This document shows, piece after piece, positions 1 through 9,561 of a stretch of DNA of 9,561 nt (the first letter of the stretch is position 1; every line of letters begins with the position of its first letter). A model generated the notes under the pieces. The model was not told the DNA's origin, did no database searches, and was given only the letters and a program-made list of their open reading frames with translations. The DNA comes from a virus (lineage: Duplodnaviria > Heunggongvirae > Uroviricota > Caudoviricetes), in IMG/VR virus record IMGVR_UViG_2541047595_000019, one strand, 5' to 3'. Made by a program: the position numbers and the translations under genes.

Positions 1-97
1 TTACAGGGAACATTCAACAATTTCGCTTTGATTTTTCCGATGCGGTGATGTGGGGTGATACAAAGTTACCCCATTTTTTTGGCATTCAGTGGAATGA

Positions 98-137
98 TTG
101 CGCATATTTGCGCACGTAAACAAACGGATATTATAAT
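98..137 (+). promoter_or_regulatory. Candidate sigma70 promoter with operator-like motif upstream of the alpA-like gene
   Basis: TTGCGCA occurs twice (98-104 and 108-114), separated by TAT, and the core TGCGCA is self-complementary. A TATAAT hexamer sits at 132-137, 18 bp downstream of the TTGCGC -35-like hexamer at 108-113. Identified by eye only. Confidence 0.3.
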
Positions 138-242
138 TTATCCATAGTGGGCGATCTGCAAACTATCTTCGATAATCTCTCAATCAAGCTATATCACCCG
201 CCGTTGTGCGTTTTTTCATCTTGAAAGAAAAAAGGTCAAGCC

Positions 243-443
243 ATGAAGAACATCAACCCCAAATTTATTAATTTGGCCCAGCTTATTGAGCTGACCAATA
301 TTAGCCGCAGCACCATTTATCGGCTATTACACACAGACCCGTTGTTTCCGCGCCCGTTTAAATTAAGAGGCGGTAATCGTCTTTACTGGAATATCGACGA
401 AGTAAACGACTACCTATCCAGCCAGGTAAAAGCCTATGCGTAA
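243..443 (+). CDS. alpA: AlpA-family (MerR-superfamily, excisionase-like) transcriptional regulator, 66 aa
   Basis: ATG at 243 with an AAGGT Shine-Dalgarno upstream. The translation has the AlpA/Xis-type HTH signature (LIELTNISRSTIYRLL ... FPRPFKLRGGNRLYW ... EV..YL). Family assignment is from motif recognition. Confidence 0.8.
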   Translation: MKNINPKFINLAQLIELTNISRSTIYRLLHTDPLFPRPFKLRGGNRLYWNIDEVNDYLSSQVKAYA

Positions 444-536
444 TCGTCAATTAACTGCATCCACCAGCCGCTAAGTTATTTAAACTTCTTCCTCTTTCTT
501 TCCTCCTGGTGGCGATCTTTTTTTATCGAGGTGGAA

Positions 537-770
537 ATGAAAGATAGCGAATTAATGACAGTAAACTTGCCACTTTCACTTGGCGTTACTCGACGGACGC
601 TATTCAGGTGGATGAGTAAGATTAAAAATTGGCCCGTTCCGGTGAGTCCGGTCGGTGCAAGAGTTAAGTTATCCGATCTGAGATTATGGAATTCTACAAA
701 AACAAAGGCGCTCGCCACCAATGAAAAACAGCAAATCACATTTTTAGGTAAACATCATGACCAATATTGA
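537..770 (+). CDS. Second AlpA/Xis-like HTH DNA-binding protein, 77 aa from ATG 537 (ORF track starts at GTG 531)
   Basis: Translation LSLGVTRRTLFRWMSKIKNWPVPVSPVGARVKLSDLRLW follows the same helix-turn-helix-plus-wing pattern as AlpA/excisionase proteins. GAGGTGG precedes the start. The 3' end overlaps the next gene by 14 nt. Confidence 0.55.
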   Translation: MKDSELMTVNLPLSLGVTRRTLFRWMSKIKNWPVPVSPVGARVKLSDLRLWNSTKTKALATNEKQQITFLGKHHDQY

Positions 771-1152
771 ACGATTAGATCGCTGCGCGGACATTATGCG
801 CCGCAGGTGGATTTATGACCCTGAATCAGGTTTATTATTCAGCCGTGAAGCGAAAGGCCCTGTAAAAGGCGGTATGACTAACAAGGGGCATCTGGTGGTA
901 AGCATACAGGAAGGCGATTTTAAGGTAACGCTCACCTATCAAAAAGCCTGCTACGTGTATGCATATGGCGCTTATGACGAGACATTGTACGAGGTCCACC
1001 ACATTAATCTGAACAAACAAGACAACCGCCTCAAGAATATTCGACTGATGACGAAAGAAATGCATCGTCGTATTCATAAAAACGTACGCAAGATAGCTCA
1101 GCTGGGCCACACGTACTGGCTTCAACCAGAAGCAATAGAACAATCGCTATAA
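757..1152 (+). CDS. HNH endonuclease (HNH_3/AP2-like homing-endonuclease type), 131 aa
   Basis: Motif EVHHINLNKQDNRLKNIRLMTKEMHRRIH matches the H-H...N...DNR..NLR..T...H HNH signature. The N-terminal GHLVVSIQEGDFKV...YVYAYG resembles the beta-hairpin DNA-binding part of free-standing HNH enzymes. AGGTAAA Shine-Dalgarno before ATG 757. Confidence 0.7.
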   Translation: MTNIERLDRCADIMRRRWIYDPESGLLFSREAKGPVKGGMTNKGHLVVSIQEGDFKVTLTYQKACYVYAYGAYDETLYEVHHINLNKQDNRLKNIRLMTKEMHRRIHKNVRKIAQLGHTYWLQPEAIEQSL

Positions 1153-1169
1153 ACACAGGAGAAACGACT

Positions 1170-1235
1170 ATGAGCAAATTTTGTTTTACCGGAACCAACG
1201 AAGAATTAATCGCCCAGCGGGCAGCAATTTTTTAA
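1170..1235 (+). CDS. Mini-ORF, 21 aa (MSKFCFTGTNEELIAQRAAIF), possibly a translationally coupled small protein
   Basis: Strong AGGAGA Shine-Dalgarno 7 nt upstream of ATG 1170. The stop at 1233-1235 sits 12 nt before the next start and inside its Shine-Dalgarno region. No family recognised. Confidence 0.25.
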   Translation: MSKFCFTGTNEELIAQRAAIF

Positions 1236-1247
1236 GGAAGAGGCAGC

Positions 1248-1583
1248 ATGAAAATCAAAGCAACCACAATTAACGAAAACAAAGAAATAACAGCAATCAA
1301 AGTAAAAGGAGTAGATGCCATGCATTCATTAGACAGTTATTTTCAGCGCACGACAGCCCCTAAATCAGCAGCCCAGGAACGCCGTGAGGAATTCCAGGAA
1401 AAAGTGATGCGTTCTGCTGATTATATTGCAGACAAGTTCGTGGAAACGGTTCGGCCACTTGTTGATGAAGTAGCTGATAAACTTCAGTCTGAAATGCCGG
1501 AAGACATGGAAGGCACTGCAAAGGCGCGACTTCTTTTTGAATTAAGTCGTCGTTTCGGCGTGTCAATTAGCACTTTTAAATAA
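1248..1583 (+). CDS. Hypothetical protein, 111 aa
   Basis: ATG 1248 preceded by AAGGAAGAGG. Uninterrupted ORF, tightly packed with its neighbours. No family recognised. Confidence 0.6.
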   Translation: MKIKATTINENKEITAIKVKGVDAMHSLDSYFQRTTAPKSAAQERREEFQEKVMRSADYIADKFVETVRPLVDEVADKLQSEMPEDMEGTAKARLLFELSRRFGVSISTFK

Positions 1584-1600
1584 TCGGAAGAGGAAAGACA

Positions 1601-2143
1601 ATGGACGCATTTGATGTACTGGCAAATAAAGGCGCGGAACTGGTAGAGCAGCGAAATAAATGCACCGACGAAGGTGGGCGCGCGCTGTTAAATAAACAGA
1701 TTAAAGCGATCCGTATGGCCCAATTTAAATTAATCAGCAATGAAGTTATCGAAACAATTAAACCGCAGATCCCACAAATCGTTGCTGACGCTATTAAAGC
1801 CGCCGGACTGGAGAAACGCATTGCCGGGCTGAAAACGAACGCAGAGAAAATGGAGATGCACAAACAGAGCGGTTCTCCGACTCCGGATGATTACTTCTCA
1901 CCGGATGCTGAGTTTATGGCGCAGGTTGAGGAACGTCTGGGTAGCTGTCTCACCGAGGAACAGCGTCGCTATTTTGATGTAGTGGATAGTGCGGCAGGTA
2001 TTGACCTGAACTCGTATTTCGGTCGTGAAATTGAGCATTTTGATGCCGCCCCGTCTATGCCAGAGCCAGAACCAGAGAGGGCCGCCGATCCTGAAGCTGA
2101 GCAACGGAAACGCGTATTCAATGCGATAGGGATTCGGTACTGA
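1601..2143 (+). CDS. Hypothetical acidic protein, 180 aa
   Basis: ATG 1601 preceded by GGAAGAGGAAAG. Acidic, proline/glutamate-rich C-terminus (PEPEPERAADPEAEQ). No family recognised. Confidence 0.65.
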   Translation: MDAFDVLANKGAELVEQRNKCTDEGGRALLNKQIKAIRMAQFKLISNEVIETIKPQIPQIVADAIKAAGLEKRIAGLKTNAEKMEMHKQSGSPTPDDYFSPDAEFMAQVEERLGSCLTEEQRRYFDVVDSAAGIDLNSYFGREIEHFDAAPSMPEPEPERAADPEAEQRKRVFNAIGIRY

Positions 2144-2157
2144 TCGGATAAAAGAAA

Positions 2158-2176
2158 GCCGGGGAATTACCCCGGC
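2158..2176. terminator. Perfect GC-rich hairpin (GCCGGGG-AATT-CCCCGGC); the U-tract is on the minus-strand side only
   Basis: A 7-8 bp perfect stem with a 4-nt loop, 15 nt after the stop of the 1601-2143 gene. On the + strand it is followed by AATGCGA, not a T-run. On the minus strand it is followed by TTTCTTTTAT. Confidence 0.35.
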
Positions 2177-2262
2177 AATGCGACCAATGAACAATCGGAT
2201 AAGAAGAAGCAGTTTTGAAACAATGTTCGGGAACTATATTAGCACAAGTCAGGAGAAACAGC

Positions 2263-2547
2263 ATGATGGCACTACGAGTGGTACAAGGCATCGCAAGAAC
2301 CGTCGCAGAGCGCGTGTCAGACCTGAAAAACTCTCCATTGAGCGAGCAACCTTTAAAGCGGCAAATGCTCCGCTTATGGGCAGAATACTCGCTTGGAACG
2401 ATTAACAAGCTCCTTGCCATGAAATCGGGGGATGGCAGGACCGCGGAGGAAAAGGAATTCATCAGGCGTTTAACCCTCACTCGCAGAGACATTCATAGCC
2501 AATTACGCAGCGTGGGGAGCGATATTGATGATGGGACGAACGATTAA
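2263..2547 (+). CDS. Hypothetical protein, 94 aa (ATG 2263 preferred over the TTG 2215 start in the track)
   Basis: AGGAGA Shine-Dalgarno at 2251-2256, 6 nt before a tandem ATG ATG at 2263. No family recognised. Confidence 0.55.
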   Translation: MMALRVVQGIARTVAERVSDLKNSPLSEQPLKRQMLRLWAEYSLGTINKLLAMKSGDGRTAEEKEFIRRLTLTRRDIHSQLRSVGSDIDDGTND

Positions 2548-2582
2548 TTTTCGGACAAGTACTATGCGCGCGCGAGGCAATC

Positions 2583-2801
2583 ATGAAGCAAGACATAGCG
2601 GAAAGGCTGGAGATACTCGAAAACCAGCGAGAAGAAGCCAGACAGATGCGCAGGGAGGCAAATAAAGAGGGCCGGAAAAAAGATGCATGGCATCTGAGAC
2701 AATTCATCAACTTTACAAACCGTTGCATCCGGGAGTGCTACATGGAAGACGCAGAAAACTGGCTGGATTCCTTGCCAGAAAAGCACGGAACAGAGCGATG
2801 A
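2583..2801 (+). CDS. Hypothetical charged protein, 72 aa
   Basis: ATG 2583 preceded by GAGG. Its stop lies 21 nt before the next start. No family recognised. Confidence 0.5.
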   Translation: MKQDIAERLEILENQREEARQMRREANKEGRKKDAWHLRQFINFTNRCIRECYMEDAENWLDSLPEKHGTER

Positions 2802-2822
2802 TTGTTAGACGAAGGGGGTTAC

Positions 2823-3266
2823 ATGCCGATGAGACACCAGGCTGTCATTGAGCAGATCAAGCGGGAGCTAAGGGAACAAATCAAAGAGATTAGAGAGGAT
2901 GCGGCTACGGCGGCGTATGCAATCGGGATGGAAGTAATTGCCAATGCAGCAGTAGAAACGCCACGCGATACAGGGACGCTGATCGGTGGCTATTACGATC
3001 CGCAGGTAAGCCAGGATGATGAAGGTGTGCATTGCACGGTAGGAAACACGGTCCGCTATGCATATTGGGTGCATGAAATGCCGGGGACACTGAAAGGACA
3101 ACCGCGCGAACATTTCGGTAAGACGCGGGAAGGTATCGCATTTGGCGGCGGCACTGGCAGGGGTAACTATTGGGACCCGGACGCCGATCCTAAATTCCTT
3201 GAGCGGGCACTTAACGACCACAAAGCGGAGTATATGGATATAGCGATGAGATATCTTAAGAGGTAA
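2823..3266 (+). CDS. HK97 gp10-like phage virion component (head-tail joining / tail-component family), 147 aa from ATG 2823
   Basis: GAAGGGGG Shine-Dalgarno 4 nt before ATG 2823. Blocks ETPRDTGTLIGG, VGNTVRYAYWVHEMPG and KFLERALNDHK resemble the conserved TG-L, V-YA-YVEFG and PFL-PAL blocks of HK97 gp10-family proteins. This is from memory and is a moderate-confidence family call. Confidence 0.55.
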   Translation: MPMRHQAVIEQIKRELREQIKEIREDAATAAYAIGMEVIANAAVETPRDTGTLIGGYYDPQVSQDDEGVHCTVGNTVRYAYWVHEMPGTLKGQPREHFGKTREGIAFGGGTGRGNYWDPDADPKFLERALNDHKAEYMDIAMRYLKR

Positions 3267-3272
3267 GAAGAG

Positions 3273-5462
3273 ATGAGCGAGCAAGTCGGAAGCCTTCAGA
3301 TAGAGATTGACCTGAAGACAAAAAATTTACTGGTATCACAACGCCATGCTGAAAACGCGCTGGATGATATTGGCAATAAGATTGGCGGCGCAGAGCGACA
3401 AGCAGCAAAACTTAACACGCAGCTAACAAAAACATCGCGCGCTATTAGCGGCAATCTGCGTGCCGGATTCCAGCAGGCTGGATACCAGATTCAGGACTTC
3501 GTGGTGCAGGTCCAGTCAGGACAAAGCGCACTGATAGCGTTGTCACAGCAAGGCAGCCAGTTATTGAGTGCCTTCGGTGGCTGGGGTATTGCACTTGGTG
3601 CGGCGCTTACAGTTGGTGTATCGCTGTTTAAAGCCCTGACAGGTGAAACCGAGGAGACAACAGACAAGACCGAAGTATTTGAAAAGGCTTGCAGTAATTT
3701 ACGCCAGGTAATGGCCCTGAACGAGCAAGGCGTAAACGTCCTGTCAAACGAATACGCCAACCTCGCGAAACAGTCAGCCGAGGCCGCTGCGATGGTCGAA
3801 CGACATTTAACACTGAAACTACGCGAAGCCAAATCAGCGATGAGTGTCTATATCACCAATACACTGGACGCCCAAAACGCGACTGCGGGTTTTGGGATGA
3901 TTGGATCTGACAGTTTACTCGACATGATGCAGGCGATGCGTGCGCTGGGCGTTGAAACGTATGATTACGCCGACGCAATGGACCAGTTGAACGACATGGG
4001 CCTACGTGGTGCGCAGATCCATAAAGAGCTAAACCGCGAACTTGATGATATGGCAGATAAAACTGGCGTATCAAAAGAAGCGCTCTTTGATATGTGCCAG
4101 GAATTAATGGCGGTCGCTAAAGCGCCGACAGCGGACAGCATTTCAGCACTATCAAACCGCATTGCCAGCATGAACCCTACGACAGCGGAAGGTGTTGGCC
4201 TGTTTAATGAACTACAGCAGGCATTGATTAAAGCCGCTATTGAGCTTCAACAGTTCGGGGATATTAGCGAAGATACCGCCAATAAACTTGATGTATTAAA
4301 TCACGCGGCGGATTCTCAATGGGTGAAAGACTTTACAGAAAACATAAAGATGCAAACAAAGGCATTGGGAGCTTCACGCGGCGAAATCATGCGGTTACAG
4401 CTTGAGAATAAGAACCTTACAGTAGAAGAACGCGCCAATGCTGAACAGGCAATCAAGAATTACGAAGATAAACAAAATCGACTTGAACAAGAGAAAGAAG
4501 CGAAACGCCAGGCACTGGCAGCAGAACGCGCCGCCACCGCAGAACGCAAACGCCTGATGCGTGAAGAAGAGCAGGAGCGGAAACGCATTGAGCGTGAGAA
4601 AGAACAGCGCGAGCGCCAGACAAAACAAGCGAAACGCTTCACTGACCAGATCGAAACCAACTATCTGACAACCGTCAATCCGGCGACAGGTCAGGCAGAA
4701 AATCCGCTGGCAGCAATTCAGGCGCAACAGCAACGTGAATTCGAAATGCTGGAAATGTATCGCCAGCAGAATTTAGTCAGTGAGCAGCAATACCGTAACG
4801 CCCTGGAAAACATTATTAACACGTCAGCCATGCGCGTAGCAGCCATCGAGCAACAACAGGCGAGCGAATACAGTAAGAACATTCAGGGATTGATGAGCGC
4901 ATATAGCGGCATGTTTGGCGAGCTTGCTGGCGTTATTTCTGATGGTGCGGGCGAGCAGAGTGCAGCATATCGTGCGATGTTTGCAGTACAGAAAGGTTTT
5001 GCAATGGCATCCGCAGCATTGAGCCTTCAGGAGTCACTAGCGAAGGCTAACTCGCTCCCATTCCCGGCTAATATTCCGGCCTATGCGCAAGCATTAACAG
5101 CAGGTACGCAGATCATTTCAGCCATTCGCGGCATAGCTTTTGGTGGCGGTCGCTACAACGGAGGGGTGGTTGATTCGGGTAAATTCTATCGTGTCGGTGA
5201 GTCCAACAAGCCTGAGCTGTTTCAATCCGGTGGGCGACAGTACATGATTCCTGGTGAGGGCGGCAGGATTATCCCCAACCGCGATATTGGTGGCAGTGGT
5301 GGCGGCATCACACTGAACGTAACAAACAACATCCAGGCGACAAACGGCTGGACTGAAGACGACTCAAAAGCGTTGCAACAGACTATAGAAAACACAGCAA
5401 TGCGCCTGATGCAGCGCGAGTCGCAAAGACCTGGAGGCATGTTACAACCACGGCGGCGTTAA
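3273..5462 (+). CDS. Phage tail tape measure protein, lambda gpH-like, 729 aa
   Basis: AAGAGG Shine-Dalgarno before ATG 3273. The N-terminus (MSEQVGSLQIEIDL ... QVQSGQSALIALSQQGSQLLSAFGGWGIALGAAL) parallels lambda gpH (MAEPVGDLVVDL ... QLAGGQSPWLILLQQGGQVKDSFGG). The C-terminus is glycine-rich (AFGGGRYNGGVVDSGKFYRVGESNKPELF ... GGSGGG) like the lambda tape measure C-terminal domain. The centre is a long helical, highly charged ruler-like region. Confidence 0.85.
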   Translation: MSEQVGSLQIEIDLKTKNLLVSQRHAENALDDIGNKIGGAERQAAKLNTQLTKTSRAISGNLRAGFQQAGYQIQDFVVQVQSGQSALIALSQQGSQLLSAFGGWGIALGAALTVGVSLFKALTGETEETTDKTEVFEKACSNLRQVMALNEQGVNVLSNEYANLAKQSAEAAAMVERHLTLKLREAKSAMSVYITNTLDAQNATAGFGMIGSDSLLDMMQAMRALGVETYDYADAMDQLNDMGLRGAQIHKELNRELDDMADKTGVSKEALFDMCQELMAVAKAPTADSISALSNRIASMNPTTAEGVGLFNELQQALIKAAIELQQFGDISEDTANKLDVLNHAADSQWVKDFTENIKMQTKALGASRGEIMRLQLENKNLTVEERANAEQAIKNYEDKQNRLEQEKEAKRQALAAERAATAERKRLMREEEQERKRIEREKEQRERQTKQAKRFTDQIETNYLTTVNPATGQAENPLAAIQAQQQREFEMLEMYRQQNLVSEQQYRNALENIINTSAMRVAAIEQQQASEYSKNIQGLMSAYSGMFGELAGVISDGAGEQSAAYRAMFAVQKGFAMASAALSLQESLAKANSLPFPANIPAYAQALTAGTQIISAIRGIAFGGGRYNGGVVDSGKFYRVGESNKPELFQSGGRQYMIPGEGGRIIPNRDIGGSGGGITLNVTNNIQATNGWTEDDSKALQQTIENTAMRLMQRESQRPGGMLQPRRR

Positions 5463-5466
5463 CCAA

Positions 5467-5631
5467 ATCCCACGCCAGGGGGATAGACTGGCGGACCCTT
5501 CCCGGTTCTATGCGAAAAATCCCTCACAATTACCCTGCTAATTTGCCAGATTTCACGTACACACGCCAAACAAAAGCCCAGGCAGTTAGCAACCTACCCA
5601 GGCCTTTCTCACAATCCCCGCCGATATTATA
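5467..5631. repeat. Direct repeat copy A (~165 bp), immediately after the tape measure stop codon
   Basis: Near-identical to 8341-8551. The core ATAGACTGGCGGACCCTTCCCG...GAAAAATCCCTCACAATTACCCTGC.AATTTGCCAGATTTCACGTACAC.CGCC ... AGTTAGCAACCTACCCAGGCCTTTCTCACAATC.CCCGCCGATATTATA matches with a handful of substitutions, offset exactly 2880 bp. Confidence 0.85.
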
Positions 5632-5672
5632 ACCGCCATTCCCTGGTTTTATCATTTGTTGCCCAGCCTGCC

Positions 5673-5686
5673 ATTTGTAGACAAAT
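5673..5686. promoter_or_regulatory. Operator-like perfect palindrome ATTTGT-AG-ACAAAT
   Basis: 6-bp inverted arms around a 2-bp centre, about 90 bp upstream of the candidate promoter for the 5810 gene. CATTTGT is also present at 5653-5659. Confidence 0.3.
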
Positions 5687-5774
5687 CCCATCACACATAA
5701 ATCATCAACCAATAAATTGACCTAAATCATTTTATCAGTCGCTTAACCAGGTGTATTTTGTAGTCAAACAAGGG

Positions 5775-5801
5775 TTGACAAGGTTTAGCAACAAATATGA
5801 G
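5775..5801 (+). promoter_or_regulatory. Candidate promoter: TTGACA (5775-5780) and TATGAG (5796-5801) ahead of ATG 5810
   Basis: Consensus -35 hexamer. The -10-like hexamer is 15 bp downstream, which is a short spacer, and overlaps the GAGGTG Shine-Dalgarno. Confidence 0.3.
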
Positions 5802-5809
5802 GTGAAATC

Positions 5810-5998
5810 ATGAAACACGATAGAGCGGAAATTATCTTCGATATGGTGCGTGAAAGAGTGTGCGCTATGGATACTAAGATTGCACTGATAAGAGCGGGCG
5901 TGCCAGCAACTGCACAAGAACTACTGGTACTAATAGAAAGGCGTGAATACGAGCTAAGCAAAGCCAAAAGAGCATTTGCATTAATATACGCAAAATAA
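5810..5998 (+). CDS. Hypothetical small protein, 62 aa
   Basis: ATG 5810 preceded by GAGGTGAAATC. By eye it uses codons that are rare in enterobacteria (AGA, ATA, CTA), suggesting foreign origin. No family recognised. Confidence 0.55.
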   Translation: MKHDRAEIIFDMVRERVCAMDTKIALIRAGVPATAQELLVLIERREYELSKAKRAFALIYAK

Positions 5999-6017
5999 AC
6001 ACACGGGAGATTAAACA

Positions 6018-6248
6018 ATGGATAAAAATGAAGTAATCCTTCTTAGCCGCCCTGCCATTTGCCGGATGCTGGGCGGAATTAGCAGAGGCACGTTTTATTC
6101 GTGGCGTAAGAAATGGGAACAGAACGGAACTCCATTCCCCGACCCTGTTGATGTGCTGGGTACAGGGCGGGGTGTCATGTATCGCTATCAGGATGTGATG
6201 AAGTTCTTTAAATCGATTGGACTACTTTCTGACAGCGATAACCAGTAA
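6018..6248 (+). CDS. Third AlpA/excisionase-like HTH protein, 76 aa
   Basis: GGGAG Shine-Dalgarno 8 nt before ATG 6018. Translation LLSRPAICRMLGGISRGTFYSWRKK ... FPDPVDVLGTGRGVMYRYQDVMKFF fits the AlpA/Xis HTH-wing pattern. Confidence 0.6.
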   Translation: MDKNEVILLSRPAICRMLGGISRGTFYSWRKKWEQNGTPFPDPVDVLGTGRGVMYRYQDVMKFFKSIGLLSDSDNQ

Positions 6249-6265
6249 TCATCTAACTTGCTAAT

Positions 6266-6288
6266 ACCCGGCCCCGCGCCGGGTTTTT
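6266..6288 (+). terminator. Rho-independent terminator (CCCGGC-CCCGC-GCCGGG followed by TTTTT)
   Basis: 6-bp GC stem, 5-nt loop and a T5 run, 18 nt after the stop at 6246-6248. The 22-nt core is identical to 7861-7882. Confidence 0.7.
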
Positions 6289-6384
6289 GATCCCTGTCAA
6301 CTTCCCCATCAAAGCGGCTACCATCACCCGCTTTTTGTTGATAAATTAGAAAGCAAAACGTTTAGCGACAAAATGAGGTAATGT

Positions 6385-7068
6385 ATGGAATACATGGATT
6401 GGGTTGAGTTAGGCATGAACAAGCGCGCTCGCAAGATGACGCGGCAAGATGTCGCTGAGGCAATGGGCTTCAAAGGCAAAGGCGCTGCTAGCCACAAGTT
6501 TAAAGGGCGTCGCGATACAACAAACAAGACCGCTGATGATGTGTTTAAAATGCTCGCCGCAGTCGGTTGGCAAGCTGTCATCTTCGATAGCAACGGGAAG
6601 ATCGTAATGGGTACGGCACACGTTGATAGCCCGGACGGCATGGAACAAAAATTTATCAAGCGTTGCGAAGAACTAGCCAGAGAAAACGAGGCGCTAAAGG
6701 CTGAGATTGATATGTTGAAAAACCAGCTAAACAACAAAATCGATATTGTAGACAAACCAGTTAATCAACAAATCGAGACCAAGGGCGACGCTATTGTAGG
6801 AGAACCAGCTAAACAACAAAAAGCGGCGGGCGGACGTCCGGCAAAATTCAAAGTAGAACAGCTTGAGCAATGGCTTAAGGAGCAAGGCGGATACAAGGGG
6901 ACTATCGACGATTTGGCGTTATATGCGTTCGGTAAGATCGGCAAAGATGGCAAGCTGCATGGCGCACCAGGCCGCCACTGGATGTACAAGGCGTTAGCTA
7001 AACTGGAGGACGAGGGGAAAATTGCCAAAGAGGCAGCGACAAGGAGCGGGATTAATATTGTTGCTTAA
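6385..7068 (+). CDS. Putative DNA-binding regulator, 227 aa (HTH-like N-terminus, central coiled coil, basic C-terminal domain)
   Basis: TGAGGT Shine-Dalgarno 6 nt before ATG 6385. The N-terminus MTRQDVAEAMGFKG...DDVFKML looks like a Cro/CI-type HTH. EELARENEALKAEIDMLKNQL is a heptad-like coiled coil. Family not confidently recognised. Confidence 0.65.
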   Translation: MEYMDWVELGMNKRARKMTRQDVAEAMGFKGKGAASHKFKGRRDTTNKTADDVFKMLAAVGWQAVIFDSNGKIVMGTAHVDSPDGMEQKFIKRCEELARENEALKAEIDMLKNQLNNKIDIVDKPVNQQIETKGDAIVGEPAKQQKAAGGRPAKFKVEQLEQWLKEQGGYKGTIDDLALYAFGKIGKDGKLHGAPGRHWMYKALAKLEDEGKIAKEAATRSGINIVA

Positions 7069-7112
7069 CCCTTAAAGCCAACGATTAGCTACAAAACCAG
7101 CCATCAAGCGAA

Positions 7113-7138
7113 GCCCAGCCATAGCGCTGGGTTTTTTT
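7113..7138 (+). terminator. Rho-independent terminator (CCCAGC-CATAGC-GCTGGG followed by TTTTTTT)
   Basis: GC stem plus a T7 run, about 45 nt after the stop at 7066-7068. Confidence 0.65.
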
Positions 7139-7177
7139 ATTGATATTCACAAGGCATTGTCGCGTCACAAAACAAAT

Positions 7178-7191
7178 TTGATACATATCAA
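7178..7191. promoter_or_regulatory. Operator-like perfect palindrome TTGATA-CA-TATCAA
   Basis: 6-bp inverted arms with a 2-bp centre, the same 6-2-6 architecture as the 5673-5686 palindrome. It lies in the intergenic region upstream of the 7303 gene. Confidence 0.3.
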
Positions 7192-7302
7192 TGATATTAA
7201 CGCAGCGTTTTGATAACCATTCAGTTAAGAATCGCAACAACTAAAGGAGGTGATAAAGGCTGGCGAGCCGTTGCCCTATGGCAGCAAAACGGGAGCAACA
7301 AC

Positions 7303-7854
7303 ATGTTTGACTTGGTACAGGTTGATAGCGAGTGGCGCATTAGTAGTCTTGAGTTGTTGGACTTGGTTAATCAGATTCGTGTGGCTGAAGGTCTTAACAA
7401 ACTGCCGCCGAACAGATTCAACAAGAAAATTAAAGACGAGCTTGAAGGTGAAAGTCTCTACTGGCATAAAATGCGCATTAATATAAATCAACAACTTACA
7501 AAAGAAGTTGAGATTTGTGAACTCACTGGAGACCAGGCTTTAAGAGTGGGGATGCGCGAATTTAAGCGTGTCAGGGCAAAAGTAGTAGAACGAATCAACC
7601 AATTGCGATTGGAGGTATCGCAGTACAAACTGATTCAACAATGCGCAGACAAGGCAGATCAGGCGGTAGCGTTAGCCAACGAAGGCAAGTTAAACGAAGT
7701 AGCGGATCTCATTGTGATAGCGAAACGCGAGTATCTACCGCTATCAAGCGCGGCAGGTAAAACGCTAAATAGGTGTAGACCGACGAAACGCAAACTGAAC
7801 CAGTCGGAAAACTATATTGGTAGTCTTCTTCAAATCGACTTGTTCCCTGAGTGA
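7303..7854 (+). CDS. Hypothetical protein, 183 aa from ATG 7303; possible phage regulatory (Rha/antirepressor-like) protein
   Basis: GGGAG Shine-Dalgarno 7 nt before ATG 7303. The track's 7210 start is TTG with no Shine-Dalgarno. The N-terminal WRISSLELLDLVNQIRVAEGLNKL is reminiscent of Rha-type phage regulators, but the match is weak. Confidence 0.55.
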   Translation: MFDLVQVDSEWRISSLELLDLVNQIRVAEGLNKLPPNRFNKKIKDELEGESLYWHKMRININQQLTKEVEICELTGDQALRVGMREFKRVRAKVVERINQLRLEVSQYKLIQQCADKADQAVALANEGKLNEVADLIVIAKREYLPLSSAAGKTLNRCRPTKRKLNQSENYIGSLLQIDLFPE

Positions 7855-7860
7855 TAGTTC

Positions 7861-7882
7861 ACCCGGCCCCGCGCCGGGTTTT
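7861..7882 (+). terminator. Rho-independent terminator, identical core to 6266-6287 (ACCCGGCCCCGCGCCGGGTTTT)
   Basis: Same stem-loop followed by TTTT, 7 nt after the stop at 7852-7854. Confidence 0.7.
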
Positions 7883-8100
7883 AATGCCATCATTATTAAA
7901 TCTATTAATGCTCATTAAACCATAATTAGCATAACTTATAATCGAACAAAAATCACACAAATCAGATAATGATTTTTTCTGGTTATACTTATCTAAAAAA
8001 GTGGTATAGGATGTAACTTATTATTTTGTAAGGGCAAATTTATTGCGTGGCCAGATGAACAGGCTTGCGCACCTCCCGAAAAACACGCGAAAATCTAAGT

Positions 8101-8210
8101 GTTCTTTCTTTTTTTGTTTTTATTTTTTCATTTTCTCTTTCTTCTCTTTTCCGGTTTCTCTTCTTTCTGGTTTTGGTTTTTTCCTTTTTATTTTTATTCT
8201 TTCTTACCGT
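8101..8210. repeat. Low-complexity polypyrimidine (T/C) tract, ~110 nt
   Basis: By manual count about 96 of 110 bases are T or C, with roughly 5 A and 9 G. There is no regular periodicity. It sits in an AT-rich non-coding spacer (7883-8340). Confidence 0.8.
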
Positions 8211-8340
8211 TGGGGTAAAAACACCAAAACATTTTCGCCACAAAAGCATTAATTTCATCCTGCCAGACCAATCATTTTCACCGGATACACAGCCGGATAT
8301 AATCTCACTAACACCACACCACCCCGCACCACACCTGATA

Positions 8341-8551
8341 AATCCCGTATTCAGGAAGGGGAATAGACTGGCGGACCCTTCCCGCTTCTACATGAAAAAT
8401 CCCTCACAATTACCCTGCCAATTTGCCAGATTTCACGTACACGCGCCTATATCCCCGCTACCGGATACGCGCCGCTTATACCGGATAAACAAAGGCCCAG
8501 GTAGTTAGCAACCTACCCAGGCCTTTCTCACAATCACCCGCCGATATTATA
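8341..8551. repeat. Direct repeat copy B (~210 bp), carrying a 39-bp insertion (8448-8486) relative to copy A
   Basis: Aligns with 5467-5631. The insertion TATATCCCCGCTACCGGATACGCGCCGCTTATACCGGAT contains two CCGGATA motifs. Confidence 0.85.
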
Positions 8552-8670
8552 TCACCCACCCTGCCGTTTTCAGGCGGGAGGTGAATAGCCGTCACTTGTT
8601 GCATAATTGATTAATTTCCGACCAATTAAATTAACTCCCACCAATACACGCTAGATGGGAGGTGGATTTT

Positions 8671-8742
8671 GTGACGCAGATCACTTTCTCTATTCCTGCA
8701 TTTTTGTTTAATTCAATCAACGGAAGGCAACTCCCAGGCTGA
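8671..8742 (+). CDS. Mini-ORF, 23 aa (GTG start; TQITFSIPAFLFNSINGRQLPG), speculative
   Basis: GGGAGGTG Shine-Dalgarno 6 nt before GTG 8671. The upstream motif TAGATGGGAGGTG (8652-8664) is repeated exactly at 8748-8760. Confidence 0.2.
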   Translation: MTQITFSIPAFLFNSINGRQLPG

Positions 8743-8765
8743 AAGGATAGATGGGAGGTGAAATC

Positions 8766-8828
8766 ATGAAGCGGTGGGAAGTGATTTTACTGATGGTGAT
8801 GATGTTTGTTATGTGCGTGGAGTATTAA
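8766..8828 (+). CDS. Mini-ORF encoding a 20-aa hydrophobic peptide (MKRWEVILLMVMMFVMCVEY)
   Basis: GGGAGGTG Shine-Dalgarno 5 nt before ATG 8766. The stop at 8826-8828 overlaps the Shine-Dalgarno of the next gene. Composition resembles small membrane toxin or leader peptides. Confidence 0.3.
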   Translation: MKRWEVILLMVMMFVMCVEY

Positions 8829-8839
8829 GGGGGGCAATT

Positions 8840-9019
8840 ATGGAACGCTTTATCAATAAACTACTGATTGTTGTTATCGCAATAGCGATCTTCGTATGGG
8901 TGGGCGTGCTGTTTAGCCAGTTTCCTGATGCTATGCGGTTAATTCAGATCGAGGGACAACGCGCTTTTATCCCTGGCTGGCGCGTGATTTACGAATTAAT
9001 CCGCTGGTTTGCAGCTTGA
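8840..9019 (+). CDS. Small membrane protein, 59 aa, one predicted transmembrane helix
   Basis: TAAGGGGGGCA Shine-Dalgarno context before ATG 8840 (the track starts at an upstream GTG). The hydrophobic helix is LLIVVIAIAIFVWVGVLF. Confidence 0.5.
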   Translation: MERFINKLLIVVIAIAIFVWVGVLFSQFPDAMRLIQIEGQRAFIPGWRVIYELIRWFAA

Positions 9020-9033
9020 ATAAGGGGGGCACT

Positions 9034-9561
9034 ATGAACAGAGAAAAGACATTCCCGGAAATGCTGGAAGAGGCAGCGATTAACAGCCTGGCTATTGCAG
9101 ACACTAAGGAATTAATGACGTTCACCAAGCGCCAGATAACCGCAATTATGCAGATGCCGAGTATTAGCGAGGAACCTGCGACGGCACACGCTATGGCTAT
9201 CCATACGCTCACAATGGCGACTTACCTTTGGTTGTATAGCGACTTCGGGTTGCAGCCAGTCGATGCAGACGATCGCGAGTTATTCGCTGTGGATGTTGAC
9301 GACGTACACGCCGTACTGATGCCGCTAAATGTTCTGGTTGGCTGGATTTACCACAATAGCGTCGAGGCGGTTTGCAGGGCGAAAGCGGGAAATCCTGGTG
9401 GAACTGACTGGCGGTTACTGTTCCGGCAAATGACTTTAGAGCAGTTCATCGACGACAAATATGGACTATCACACGACATTGCTGATGCTCTTTACGAAGC
9501 AATGAAAGAAGGCGCAACAGCCGCGCTAAATGGCAACCTGGCAGCACCGACTATTCACTGA
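9034..9561 (+). CDS. Hypothetical protein, 175 aa
   Basis: ATG 9034 preceded by the same TAAGGGGGGCA context 5 nt upstream. The ORF ends with TGA at the window edge. No family recognised. Confidence 0.6.
   Translation: MNREKTFPEMLEEAAINSLAIADTKELMTFTKRQITAIMQMPSISEEPATAHAMAIHTLTMATYLWLYSDFGLQPVDADDRELFAVDVDDVHAVLMPLNVLVGWIYHNSVEAVCRAKAGNPGGTDWRLLFRQMTLEQFIDDKYGLSHDIADALYEAMKEGATAALNGNLAAPTIH

Follow-up and report, generated by a model that had tools for sequence, protein, structure and literature searches.

Evidence for two heterologous right arms in tandem in a CPZ-55-family integrative element in ychJ of Escherichia coli

INTRODUCTION

CPZ-55 of Escherichia coli K-12 (intZ, yffL–yffS) and its relatives adjoining eutA are the closest described systems to the DNA analysed here. 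They share with it the order int–alpA–...–R1–variable arm–R2, R1 and R2 denoting two conserved blocks, of which R1 lies between yffP and yffQ in K-12 (85% identity over 171 nt) and R2, with its 8-bp core TCAGGAAG, lies at the eutA end. Lambdoid phages and satellites exchange modules at short conserved linker or boundary sequences, and the lambda OOP and P22 sar RNAs are short antisense RNAs of phages, each with a promoter and an intrinsic terminator of its own. Literature searches on CPZ-55 as a satellite, and on phage satellites with a tape measure gene, yielded no paper on the CPZ-55 family.

We analysed a DNA stretch of 9,561 nt (the window, to which positions refer), in which the original prediction had seen a direct repeat bracketing a self-contained regulatory cassette. 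The window matches E. coli elements adjoining eutA and others in ychJ; it makes up the body of an integrative element of the CPZ-55 family, 13.9 kb long, that is inserted in the E. coli gene ychJ. Besides the shared gene order, this element encodes a YffS-like protein (86% over 125 residues) and a YffM-like one (45% over 31). Unlike CPZ-55, it lies in ychJ rather than at eutA/eutB, its integrase is not of the IntZ type (31% identity to IntZ) and has another core (CTGATCCAGA), it carries gp10-like and tape measure genes absent from K-12, and it has an HTH_36/iteron right end and two arms. Judged from sequence, it is thus not CPZ-55 itself but a relative of it in which the integration module has been swapped.

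RESULTS

The 13.9-kb element encodes an integrase, AlpA, an HNH protein, a gp10-like connector protein, a tape measure protein and, at its right end, an HTH_36 protein with four iterons; genes for a capsid, a portal or the large terminase subunit were not found in it. The sole recombinase that it encodes is a tyrosine integrase of the P4/lambda type, with Arm-DNA-bind_3, Phage_int_M and Phage_integrase domains. In its small size, its int, alpA-type and replication genes and its incomplete set of virion genes, it resembles phage satellites (PICI-like/P4-like). The tape measure gene is annotated as such in relatives, its Pfam TMP_2 match being under the cut-off. The features of the window are collected in Table 1; the overall layout is tape measure gene–R1a–X–R2a–core followed by R1b–Y–R2b–core–rep/ori, X and Y being the two arms.

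Table 1. Features of the window and their coordinates
Feature	Position	Strand	Basis or remark
Tape measure gene, 729 aa, last gene of conserved left arm	3273..5462	+	phrog_1538 full length, E = 1e-96
R1a, conserved arm-head intergenic block of CPZ-55 family	5463..5640	.	85-97% identity to single-copy block in relatives
Candidate small antisense RNA gene A	5566..5631	-	promoter scan and fold
Shared RBS/ATG linker GAGGTGAAATCATGAA	5799..5814 and 8755-8770	+	both copies in window
Arm X genes	5810..7882	+	4 genes: 62, 76, 227, 183 aa
Arm X, 62-aa gene	5810-5998	+	
Arm X, 76-aa HTH/Xis-like gene	6018-6248	+	HTH_23, phrog_4745
Arm X, 227-aa gene	6385-7068	+	
Arm X, 183-aa gene	7303-7854	+	
AT-rich stretch with polypyrimidine tract (8090-8210, 65% T)	7883..8263	.	
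R2a, conserved right-end block of eutA-type CPZ-55 elements	8264..8358	.	86-92% identity to eutA-stop-abutting element ends
R1b, second copy of arm-head block	8357..8558	.	39-nt allelic insert 8448-8486
Candidate small antisense RNA gene B	8485..8551	-	promoter scan and fold
CRP-like site TGTGACGCAGATCACT	8672..8687	+	upstream of arm Y
Start of arm Y	8755..9561	+	96-99% identity to first post-tape-measure genes in L001, L004
Arm Y, 20-codon hydrophobic ORF	8766-8828	+	
Arm Y, 59-aa membrane protein	8840-9019	+	
Arm Y, 175-aa protein	9034-9561	+	

The direct repeat, R1, is real and not a chance match, as blastn of copy A against copy B gave E = 5e-42. Repeat search of the window resolved it into three collinear blocks, i.e. 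5477-5567 versus 8357-8447 (91 nt, 92%, spacing 2880), 5568-5619 versus 8487-8538 (52 nt, 94%, spacing 2919) and 5617-5638 versus 8537-8558 (22 nt, 86%), so that overall 5477-5638 corresponds to 8357-8558 at 86-94% identity, and MAFFT alignment bore out the predicted 39-nt insertion in copy B. The predicted limits, 5467 and 8341, have to be moved to 5477 and 8357, because bases 8341-8356 belong to R2 and not to R1; their likeness to 5466-5472 (AAATCCC) lies outside the repeat, and the other R2 copy reads AACTACC where the first has the AAATCCC-like bases. The sequences after the two copies (5639-5798 and 8559-8754), which had been read as related, aligned globally with a score below the shuffle mean, so that their similarity is not significant, and share short patches only. 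The initiation region predicted to be common to both is genuine, one nucleotide to the left of its predicted positions, and the 8766 ORF that it leads into has only 20 codons. No tRNA was found in the window, in line with the earlier remark that the repeats lack tRNA-like features, and an Rfam scan of both strands of the entire window gave nothing at E<=1.

In E. coli CPZ-55-type elements, R1 is a conserved block of non-coding DNA that heads the variable right arm. It follows directly after the tape measure gene in relatives, or after yffP in K-12, where the yffP-yffQ spacer is 85% identical over 171-174 nt; the block has the same position in 10 relatives, and likewise marks the left arm/right arm junction of the ychJ element. 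It is single-copy in all 305 carriers among 5,426 complete E. coli genomes, and a comparison with 50,697 phage genomes found nothing similar to it. R1a consists of a hairpin (block 1, 5473-5493), block 2a (5494-5567) and block 2b (5568-5640); the left end of R1b is cut off within the loop of the block-1 hairpin, and the insert of R1b is an allele also present in other elements (L030 and L035/L092).

A second repeat pair, R2, was missed by the original prediction because one copy lies outside the window. R2a (compared over 8264-8364) is 86% identical to R2b, found ∼2.46 kb to the right and beyond the window (17457-17556 of sequence L005), and the two are 79-92% identical to eutA-abutting element ends. 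R2a has two CCGGATAY motifs and ends with TCAGGAAG at 8351-8358, which is the published 8-bp att core and target duplication of CPZ-55 (PMC6379469). R2 is single-copy in 448 genomes and stands next to eutA in all the chromosomal cases listed, with six of 448 R2 places being on plasmids; in the ychJ element, both R2 copies and the IntZ core are internal rather than terminal. CCGGATAY motifs occur seven times against 0.9 expected, in both R2 copies and in the insert of R1b, and by their sequence are possible integrase sites. At the junction between the arms, R2a and TCAGGAAG are followed by GGGAATAGACTGG, which is R1b, and the start of R1b falls inside the core. The microhomology there is AGGGGAAT at 8357-8364, i.e. 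AGGG(G)AAT, about 7-8 nt; since it is so short (∼7 nt) and overlaps the CPZ-55 att core, the two units were not joined by homologous recombination between R1 copies, contrary to the module exchange originally envisaged. The alternative offered with it, a duplicated junction, was right. The R2 pair reveals two full R1-arm-R2 units in tandem.

Beyond the window, arm Y continues with a 114-aa lipoprotein and the 210-aa YffS-like protein, and then R2b. The segment from R1b to R2b aligns end to end with a whole eutA-type right arm, which begins just past the tape measure gene and stops at the junction with eutA, and the parts that they share are 96-97% identical, showing that R1b-Y-R2b is a complete eutA-type right arm lodged exactly at the core relic that ends the first arm. 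Upstream of arm Y, the CRP-like site has a K-12 homologue before yffQ (TGTGATGCAGATCGCT) in the binding-site table of a Footprint-seq preprint (PMC12871828). The linker GAGGTGAAATCATGAA, to judge by its sequence, is a mosaic joint, and in L004 an A-type spacer is joined to an 8766-type ORF at this 16-17 nt linker. It is very improbable that one R1-arm-R2 unit was duplicated in tandem in situ and that one of the copies then diverged or had its genes replaced. The R1 core copies are indeed 96.6% identical, as close to each other as either is to any outside allele, and both have a private T in CACAATTACCC, but these shared bases are explicable by local gene conversion; moreover, no X protein resembles any Y protein, arm Y is nearly identical to eutA-type arms (Table 1), R2b has eutA-type bases at the positions where R2a differs, and the post-R1 spacers are of two different allelic types. 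We therefore favour, as the probable reading, two heterologous R1-arm-R2 right arms in tandem in a CPZ-55-family element in ychJ, with R1 as arm head; that two such arms stand in tandem is why R1 occurs twice in this lineage.

The DNA between the R1 copies had been described as regulatory genes with their own terminators. Terminator-like hairpins are present (6266-6287, 7110-7135 and 7861-7882, the last identical to the first), but a clear DNA-binding (HTH) domain was found in only one of the four X proteins, that of 6018-6248, so a self-contained regulatory cassette has weak support; the other three gave no informative match in domain and protein family searches. The AT-rich stretch that follows arm X is missing between terminator and R2 in relatives, and contains a minus-strand 72-codon Lys/Arg/Glu-rich ORF (8040-8258) that was gene-called in L005-L009.

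It is improbable that X was inserted or exchanged by homologous recombination between paralogous R1 junctions, with tape measure gene-R1-Y as the empty site. The arrangement expected of an empty site, in which the tape measure stop is followed by one repeat, then by the 8766 ORF and by the 9034 gene, is indeed present in single copy in L001 and L004, and recombination between R1a and R1b would in principle delete X. L001 and L004 are, however, different elements integrated at another chromosomal site, eutA, with another integrase and a tape measure identity of just 86-91%, and so are not an empty site for X; no ychJ element with tape measure gene-R1-Y was present among 24 + 24 contigs; and arm X has its own R2-core end, making the unit R1-arm-R2 and not R1-X-R1. 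The only near-isogenic structural variant found, L010, removes Y and not X: it matches the window from 1 to 8364 and passes directly to the sequence located after R2b, without R1b-Y-R2b and with the X genes retained. As R1b-Y-R2b lies between two cores and exactly this segment is lost in the near-isogenic strain, X is the resident arm rather than an inserted cassette, and the mobile unit is not bounded by the R1 pair as predicted.

L010 is a short-read contig seen in two samples, and its mis-assembly is unlikely. Its chromosomal flanks nest within the L005/L007 host clade and the two-arm form also occurs in the divergent hosts L006, L008 and L009, indicating that L010 arose by secondary loss. 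It retains R2a-specific bases up to the last 16 nt, which puts the crossover at the core; because the two cores are direct repeats, the second arm can be lost precisely. About 21 of 24 contigs had the two-arm form, including one of 5.2 Mb, and two more break inside R1a; all 24 contigs carrying the exact 175-aa arm Y protein were two-arm.

The second arm was probably brought in by an integrase of the IntZ type acting in trans. A eutA-type element would have integrated and subsequently lost the stretch from int up to and including the tape measure gene, or else a mini-circle of the right arm would have formed when aberrant excision took place at a sequence in R1 resembling the core. Integrase action at TCAGGAAG requires a co-resident eutA-type element, since the resident integrase is distant from IntZ and has another core; an intermediate with a full nested eutA-type element was not found among the sequences compared. 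Illegitimate recombination independent of an integrase accounts for the same structures, and that the tandem was made and resolved in this manner is possible, if rather doubtful. The left joint would then stem from the AGGG(G)AAT microhomology with R2 homology as anchor (homology-facilitated illegitimate recombination, or Campbell-type integration of a random circle), and L010 from slippage between 16-nt repeats. The resident integrase is of the wrong type, the 7-8-nt microhomology is at a joint situated in the hairpin loop of R1 block 1, and a 16-nt identical repeat flanks the deleted segment, all of which fit. Against this, three independent events (both joints, right and left, and the deletion in L010) all fall within a few nt of the 8-bp core, a longer 29-nt identical block and 100 nt of R2 homology were left unused, and R1b has two extra CCGGATA motifs like those of the R2 arm.

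From its sequence, the minus strand of R1 is predicted to carry the gene of a candidate antisense RNA of ∼55 nt, with a promoter of the sigma70 type and an intrinsic terminator rich in G·U pairs. The promoter scan gave ATGATA-18-TATAAT in copy A (-10 at 5631-5626, predicted start near 5620) and CTGAAA-16-TGnTATAAT in copy B (extended -10 TGATATAAT, TATAAT at 8551-8546, predicted start near 8541). Of the 12 variants retaining the region, 11 have TATAAT or TATAGT as their -10 hexamer; the -10 of L002 is degenerate. A GC-rich 14-bp hairpin follows in each copy (5607-5594/5585-5572 and 8526-8513/8504-8491), with a U tract to about 5566 in copy A. Over 13 distinct variants, 99.5% of stem cells are paired, versus 54-65% when the partners are shifted by one column, and 7 of the 14 pairs vary yet stay paired, with one compensatory change (C-G to G-C); the covariation score was reached in 41 of 500 shuffles, a modest support because the hairpin hardly varies. 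The hairpin contains four G·U pairs and is for this reason specific to the minus strand. RNA polymerase-sigma70 binds the K-12 yffP>yffQ spacer in vitro, a SELEX peak that assigns no strand (PMC3946193). Significant targets of the candidate RNA were not found elsewhere in the element.

R1 would probably act in cis as a control region, the ∼55-nt RNA being antisense to any transcript that reads on from the tape measure operon into the arm; each arm would have a promoter of its own further downstream, CRP-dependent for arm Y. We consider it unlikely that R1 yields no RNA of its own and is instead a protein-binding, promoter or packaging region, such as an operator for a regulator of the element or its helper, a rut site for Rho-dependent termination, a cos/pac site or an origin, with the minus-strand hairpin merely shielding the tape measure operon from antisense transcription. 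Such a role would suit the C-rich, G-poor plus strand of R1a (C 35%, G 17%), as in rut sites, the occurrence of CTCACAAT twice, 86 bp apart, the conservation of block 2a outside the predicted RNA, and the strandless SELEX peak. It sits poorly with the joint conservation of -10 hexamer, 35-nt leader, hairpin and U tract downstream of three unrelated types of sequence, and with the lack of a minus-strand gene upstream for a terminator to serve; mimicry of a helper's cos/pac is opposed by the phage genome comparison, and the separate iteron and rep module is a likelier origin of replication.

DISCUSSION

The candidate RNA resembles OOP and sar RNAs in its predicted size, sigma70 promoter, terminator hairpin with U tract and location opposite a convergent operon end; it differs in having no sequence or Rfam relationship to them and in overlapping non-coding DNA instead of a gene end or ribosome-binding site. 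A functional analogy may be drawn with integron cassettes, in that a promoter-proximal variable segment lies between recombination sites and could leave as a circle, yet no IntI integrase, attC hairpin or attI is present, the boundaries are R1 and the R2-core, and the arms are multi-gene with their own promoters.

As in tandem or nested att integration of prophages or satellites, inserted DNA lies between direct copies of an att core and precise core-to-core loss is seen; here, in contrast, the target site is an attR-like relic that lies within another element, the inserted unit has neither an integrase nor a left arm of its own, and the resident integrase has another specificity. As in lambdoid mosaicism, homology between relatives breaks at short shared linkers, namely AGACTGGCGGACC, the R1 core, GAGGTGAAATCATGAA, TAAGGGGGGCA-ATG and the CGCGCCGGGTTTT terminator with GCTATACAGACCA, whereas the two alternative modules here stand side by side instead of being swapped, and their joint is at an integrase core and not at a linker. 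The case is thus one of mobile-element mosaicism with two right arms in tandem, rather than a new kind of system.

The window in a ychJ-inserted relative of CPZ-55

By megablast against 50,697 phage genomes, no phage match was found for the window. Chromosomal islands in 265 complete E. coli genomes were matched, each covering at most 50% of the window, and these islands are the CPZ-55-type elements between eutB and eutA, K-12 CPZ-55 included, together with ychJ-inserted relatives. In many E. coli contigs that carry the exact tape measure protein, the window constitutes the body of the ychJ-inserted element (locus coordinate = window + 6728). The att cores CTGATCCAGA of this ychJ-type element were located at 5407 and 19310 of locus L007, so that the element measures ~13.9 kb; it encodes an integrase, AlpA, an HNH protein, a gp10-like connector protein, the tape measure protein (TMP, 729 aa; phrog_1538, E = 1e-96) and unknowns, and no capsid or terminase genes were found within the ~13.9 kb. 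Judged by IntZ and eutA the element falls outside CPZ-55, and judged by the repeats R1 and R2 and the att core it falls inside; it is a CPZ-55 relative with a different integration module.

Region 2823-5462 holds the genes of the gp10-like connector/tail-completion protein and the full-length TMP, in an element of 13.9 kb that lacks capsid, portal, terminase and other tail genes, which suggests a satellite that would alter or borrow the tails of a helper siphovirus. Literature searches found no paper describing this family, and none on CPZ-55 as a satellite. Right of the window, the Z module encodes a 203-aa HTH_36 protein (L007 17576-18187), behind whose gene lie four direct repeats of about ACGTGTGACATTTGGGAYACAGGT (L007 18247-18377; iterons of 24-30 nt), and the two probably form a replication module, initiator plus iteron origin, located at the element's right end. 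An 832-bp deletion (918-1749) in L006, L008 and L012 has eliminated most of the HNH gene together with the ORF that follows, leaving a fused 183-aa ORF.

R1 as a repeat in the window and a single-copy arm border in relatives

The direct repeat claimed in the original prediction is real: a repeat search of the window returned three collinear blocks of R1, the conserved non-coding head of the variable right arm (table below), and blastn of copy A (R1a) against copy B (R1b) gave E = 5e-42. With this E value and the two-copy form in about 21 contigs, one of them of 5.2 Mb, chance or assembly artefact was ruled out. The copy offset shifts from 2880 to 2919-2920, so that the predicted 39-nt insertion in copy B is borne out, at 8448-8486; it is an allele, also present in L030 and L035/L092. 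Copy B does not start at 8341 as had been read, because 8341-8356 is R2 sequence and R1 homology begins at 8357, and the supposed relatedness of the sequences after the two copies was not significant in alignment. The common 16-nt initiation region GAGGTGAAATCATGAA is present, at 5799-5814 and 8755-8770; no tRNA was found, in agreement with the predicted lack of tRNA-like features in the repeats, and an Rfam search of the window matched no known RNA family.

Coordinates of the repeat blocks, predicted regulatory signals and smaller features
Feature	Position	Strand	Description
R1 match 1	5477-5567 vs 8357-8447		91 nt, 92%
R1 match 2	5568-5619 vs 8487-8538		52 nt, 94%
R1 match 3	5617-5638 vs 8537-8558		22 nt, 86%
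Promoter A	ends 5626	minus	ATGATA-18-TATAAT; sigma70-type, promoter scan
Promoter B	ends 8546	minus	CTGAAA-16-TGnTATAAT; sigma70-type, promoter scan
Hairpin A	5607-5572	minus	14 bp, ~12 nt past predicted start, then UUUUGUUU
Hairpin B	8526-8491	minus	14 bp, ~12 nt past predicted start, then UUUUGUUU
72-codon Lys/Arg/Glu-rich ORF	8040-8258	minus	inside AT-rich and polypyrimidine region 7883-8263; accepted by gene callers
CRP-like site TGTGACGCAGATCACT	8672-8687		ahead of arm Y

R1 occurs in 305 of 5,426 complete genomes, at a single place in each; in K-12-type coordinates (strain 4A record) it lies at about 2,563,140-2,563,315. In all relatives examined, one R1 copy stands at the border between the conserved left arm and the variable right arm, the last left-arm gene before it being the tape measure gene or, in relatives without TMP, yffO-yffP-like genes. 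Among 185,579 species-representative genomes the exact R1 17-mer was confined to E. coli, the remaining 16 matches being dismissed as chance, and metagenome and viral scans with the R1 16-mer yielded 17 true R1 loci, each single-copy, with the double matches on one contig (L072 and L103) again due to chance.

Within R1, position 5493-5495, directly after AGACTGGCGGACC, is an insertion hot spot in relatives (L001, L002, L030, L031, L036, L048, L080 and L093); the inserts measure 100-340 nt, and one carries a hydrophobic ORF of 31 codons and a CGCGCCGGGTTTT terminator, along with the beginning of an R2-like sequence (GCTATACAGACCAATCAC). Small circular E. coli 'plasmids' (L123, i.e. CP057337.1, of 9,653 bp; CP057350.1; CP057168.1) carry a partial R1, preceded by short hypothetical genes arranged like the family's left arm and adjoined by a 'recombinase family protein' gene; no tyrosine integrase is annotated in their gene table, which is incomplete. 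The CPZ-55 family may have episomal members.

A second right arm stacked at an internal att core

R2, the right-end block of the family, is also duplicated: R2a (window 8264-8364) recurs as R2b (L005 17457-17556), 86% identical, 2.46 kb rightward and outside the window. R2 forms the very right end of eutA-type elements, touching the eutA stop codon; it was found in 448 genomes, as a single copy in each, and abuts eutA in every chromosomal match listed, with 6 of the 448 places on plasmids. One R2-like hit (H97) lies under umuC on E. coli E2348/69 plasmid NZ_CP059841.1 (96.6 kb) at 67789-67892, with 87.5% identity over 104 nt. The plasmid matches (6 records) may be remnants of CPZ-55-type ends that lie away from the eut locus.

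R2 terminates in TCAGGAAG, which is the 8-bp target duplication of CPZ-55 (PMC6379469), and the same core was also derived here from attL and attR sequences. The core occupies 8351-8358 and R1 homology starts at 8357, so the arm joint overlaps the core, and the layout reads TMP-R1a-X-R2a-core / R1b-Y-R2b-core-Z, X being the arm 1 genes (5810-7882) and Y the arm 2 genes (from 8755, running past the window). Only AGGG(G)AAT microhomology is common to the arm joint and the resident R2-Z junction. The interval 7883-8263, from the last X terminator to R2a, is made up of AT-rich sequence together with a polypyrimidine tract of 120 nt (65% T); L035/L092 have the left portion of this AT-rich sequence fused straight to the R1 hairpin.

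The R1b-to-R2b segment aligns end to end with the entire eutA-type right arm, which extends from just past the TMP gene to the eutA junction, with 96-97% identity in the shared parts, and the first arm Y genes are 96-99% identical to those directly behind TMP-R1 in the eutA-integrated L001 and L004. The arrangement anticipated in the original prediction, a TMP stop followed by a single repeat and the 8766 gene, does exist in L001 and L004, but as the setting native to arm Y in those other elements and not as an empty site; no TMP-R1-Y arrangement in a ychJ element occurred among the two sets of 24 contigs. In these sets the two-arm form was found in about 21 of the 24 contigs read, two more stopping inside R1a as short-read assemblies breaking at a repeat would, and in every one of the 24 contigs that encode the exact 175-aa protein of arm Y. 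NCTC assembly GCA_900449635.1 is one example of a two-arm strain.

Locus L010 is identical to window 1-8364, followed by the sequence behind R2b, with exactly R1b-Y-R2b missing, a deletion of 2.46 kb. By its chromosomal flanks L010 falls within the L005/L007 host clade, and two-arm elements reside in hosts of clearly distinct background (L006, L008, L009), so that L010 represents a secondary loss; its reading as an ancestral empty site was rejected. Since L010 retains R2a-specific bases until the last 16 nt (CCGTATTCAGGAAGGG), the crossover took place at the core, not in the longer 29-nt identical R2 block.

Genes and linkers of the two arms

The X genes had been called regulatory, which is supported for only one of them, encoding a 76-aa protein with a clear HTH and a weak Xis-like match; the other X and Y proteins returned nothing informative in domain, defence-system or NCBIfam annotation. 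Arm Y products include membrane and lipoprotein-like proteins and a YffS-like protein. A Footprint-seq preprint (PMC12871828) tabulates the K-12 homologue of the CRP-like site ahead of arm Y among its binding sites, and a CRP-dependent promoter of its own probably serves arm Y.

A very hydrophobic ORF of 20 codons (8766-8828; MKRWEVILLMVMMFVMCVEY) follows the shared initiation region; its DNA is 96% conserved in L001 and L004, and it could encode a small membrane peptide or leader peptide. Relative to L001 and L004, the gene for the 59-aa membrane protein (8840-9019) forms an insertion of 184 bp, and the ribosome-binding linker TAAGGGGGGCA(A/C)T(T)ATG is repeated on both sides of it (8826-8842 and 9021-9036), indicating that a single gene was added at a duplicated linker. 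The 72-aa ORF (2579-2604 region) and the 62-aa ORF (5806-5831 region) have alike initiation regions (AATCATGAAGCAAGACATAGCGGAAA versus AATCATGAAACACGATAGAGCGGAAA, 85%), and their proteins (from 2583 and 5810) gave no BLASTP match and are unrelated beyond this region; the common start is a further linker-type joint.

A candidate antisense RNA in R1

We propose that R1 contains a gene for a ~55-nt antisense RNA, modelled from the predicted promoter and hairpin on the minus strand of each copy. Across 13 distinct variants of the hairpin, 99.5% of cells are paired, and 7 of the 14 pairs vary yet stay paired, including a compensatory C-G to G-C change in L030; shifting the partner by one column lowers pairing to 54-65%, and the shuffle control for covariation was modest (41/500). 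Four of the pairs are G·U and would turn into C·A mismatches on the plus strand, which makes the hairpin minus-strand specific. Upstream of the -10 the variants split into three unrelated sequence types, marking the edge of the conserved unit. Genomic SELEX has reported RNA polymerase-sigma70 binding in the K-12 yffP>yffQ spacer (PMC3946193), and no literature on an RNA between yffP and yffQ was found.

Within the element, the only targets found for the candidate RNA were its own antisense sites; CTCACAAT in R1 block 2a (5494-5567) was rejected as a target, its partial match being no better than shuffled seeds and showing no co-variation. R1 and R2 are rich in C and poor in G on their plus strand, so Rho loading is a possible additional or rival function of R1. 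A helper-phage cos/pac mimic was likewise rejected for R1, sensitive blastn finding no match in 50,697 phage genomes.

Mechanism of arm stacking

The element thus contains tandem heterologous arms between direct att cores, and one precise core-to-core loss has occurred. An IntZ-type integrase, we infer, was at work at the internal core; a full eutA-type element nested at R2a would give the joint ...GTATTCAGGAAGAAGTGATGA. Within a few nt of the crossover core lie three separate joints, and CCGGATAY motifs (7 observed versus 0.9 expected), which occur in R2a, R2b and the 39-nt R1b insert, suggest arm-type integrase binding sites. The microhomology at the joint and the 16-nt repeat also allow the arms to have been joined and lost without integrase, by microhomology joining and slippage, and the mere 31% identity of the resident integrase to IntZ counts against an integrase step. 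In-situ duplication of one arm unit would fit the R1 cores of the two copies, which are 96.6% identical with one private base in common, and is disfavoured by the unrelated gene content of the arms, X and Y proteins having no BLASTP similarity; the likeness of the R1 cores hints at local gene conversion.

It is conceivable, and we consider it rather unlikely, that the right arms of CPZ-55-family elements are integrase-mobilised cassettes, each with its own antisense RNA. An IntZ-type integrase would then pair the terminal core TCAGGAAG with the core-like CCAGGGGA in the R1 hairpin to release an arm circle, excision being aided by the extra CCGGATA arm-type sites in the 39-nt R1 allele, and would then put the circle back in at the core of a different family member, so that arms would pile up or swap in the manner of an integron. 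The previously undescribed ~55-nt RNA carried by each arm would insulate it from the TMP operon.

Discussion

The observation behind the original prediction is confirmed and its interpretation partly supported. The family shows linker-bounded mosaicism, as is typical of phage-related elements, and the second, integrase-less right arm stacked at an internal att core, with its precise loss seen, varies on processes already known; likewise the candidate RNA, if real, would add a novel member to a known type. This is not a new class of system: it combines clear mosaic evolution with one new RNA candidate. CPZ-55 is present in K-12, yet its family is almost uncharacterised. The present case shows the family to combine a left arm that is conserved with right arms that can be interchanged, the two meeting at defined non-coding blocks, and shows that an arm can stack on another element exactly at the integrase core and then be lost precisely, providing a concrete model, testable by PCR, for cargo exchange between small satellite-like elements. 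It also draws attention to the yffP-yffQ spacer of K-12 as the site of a conserved small RNA candidate.
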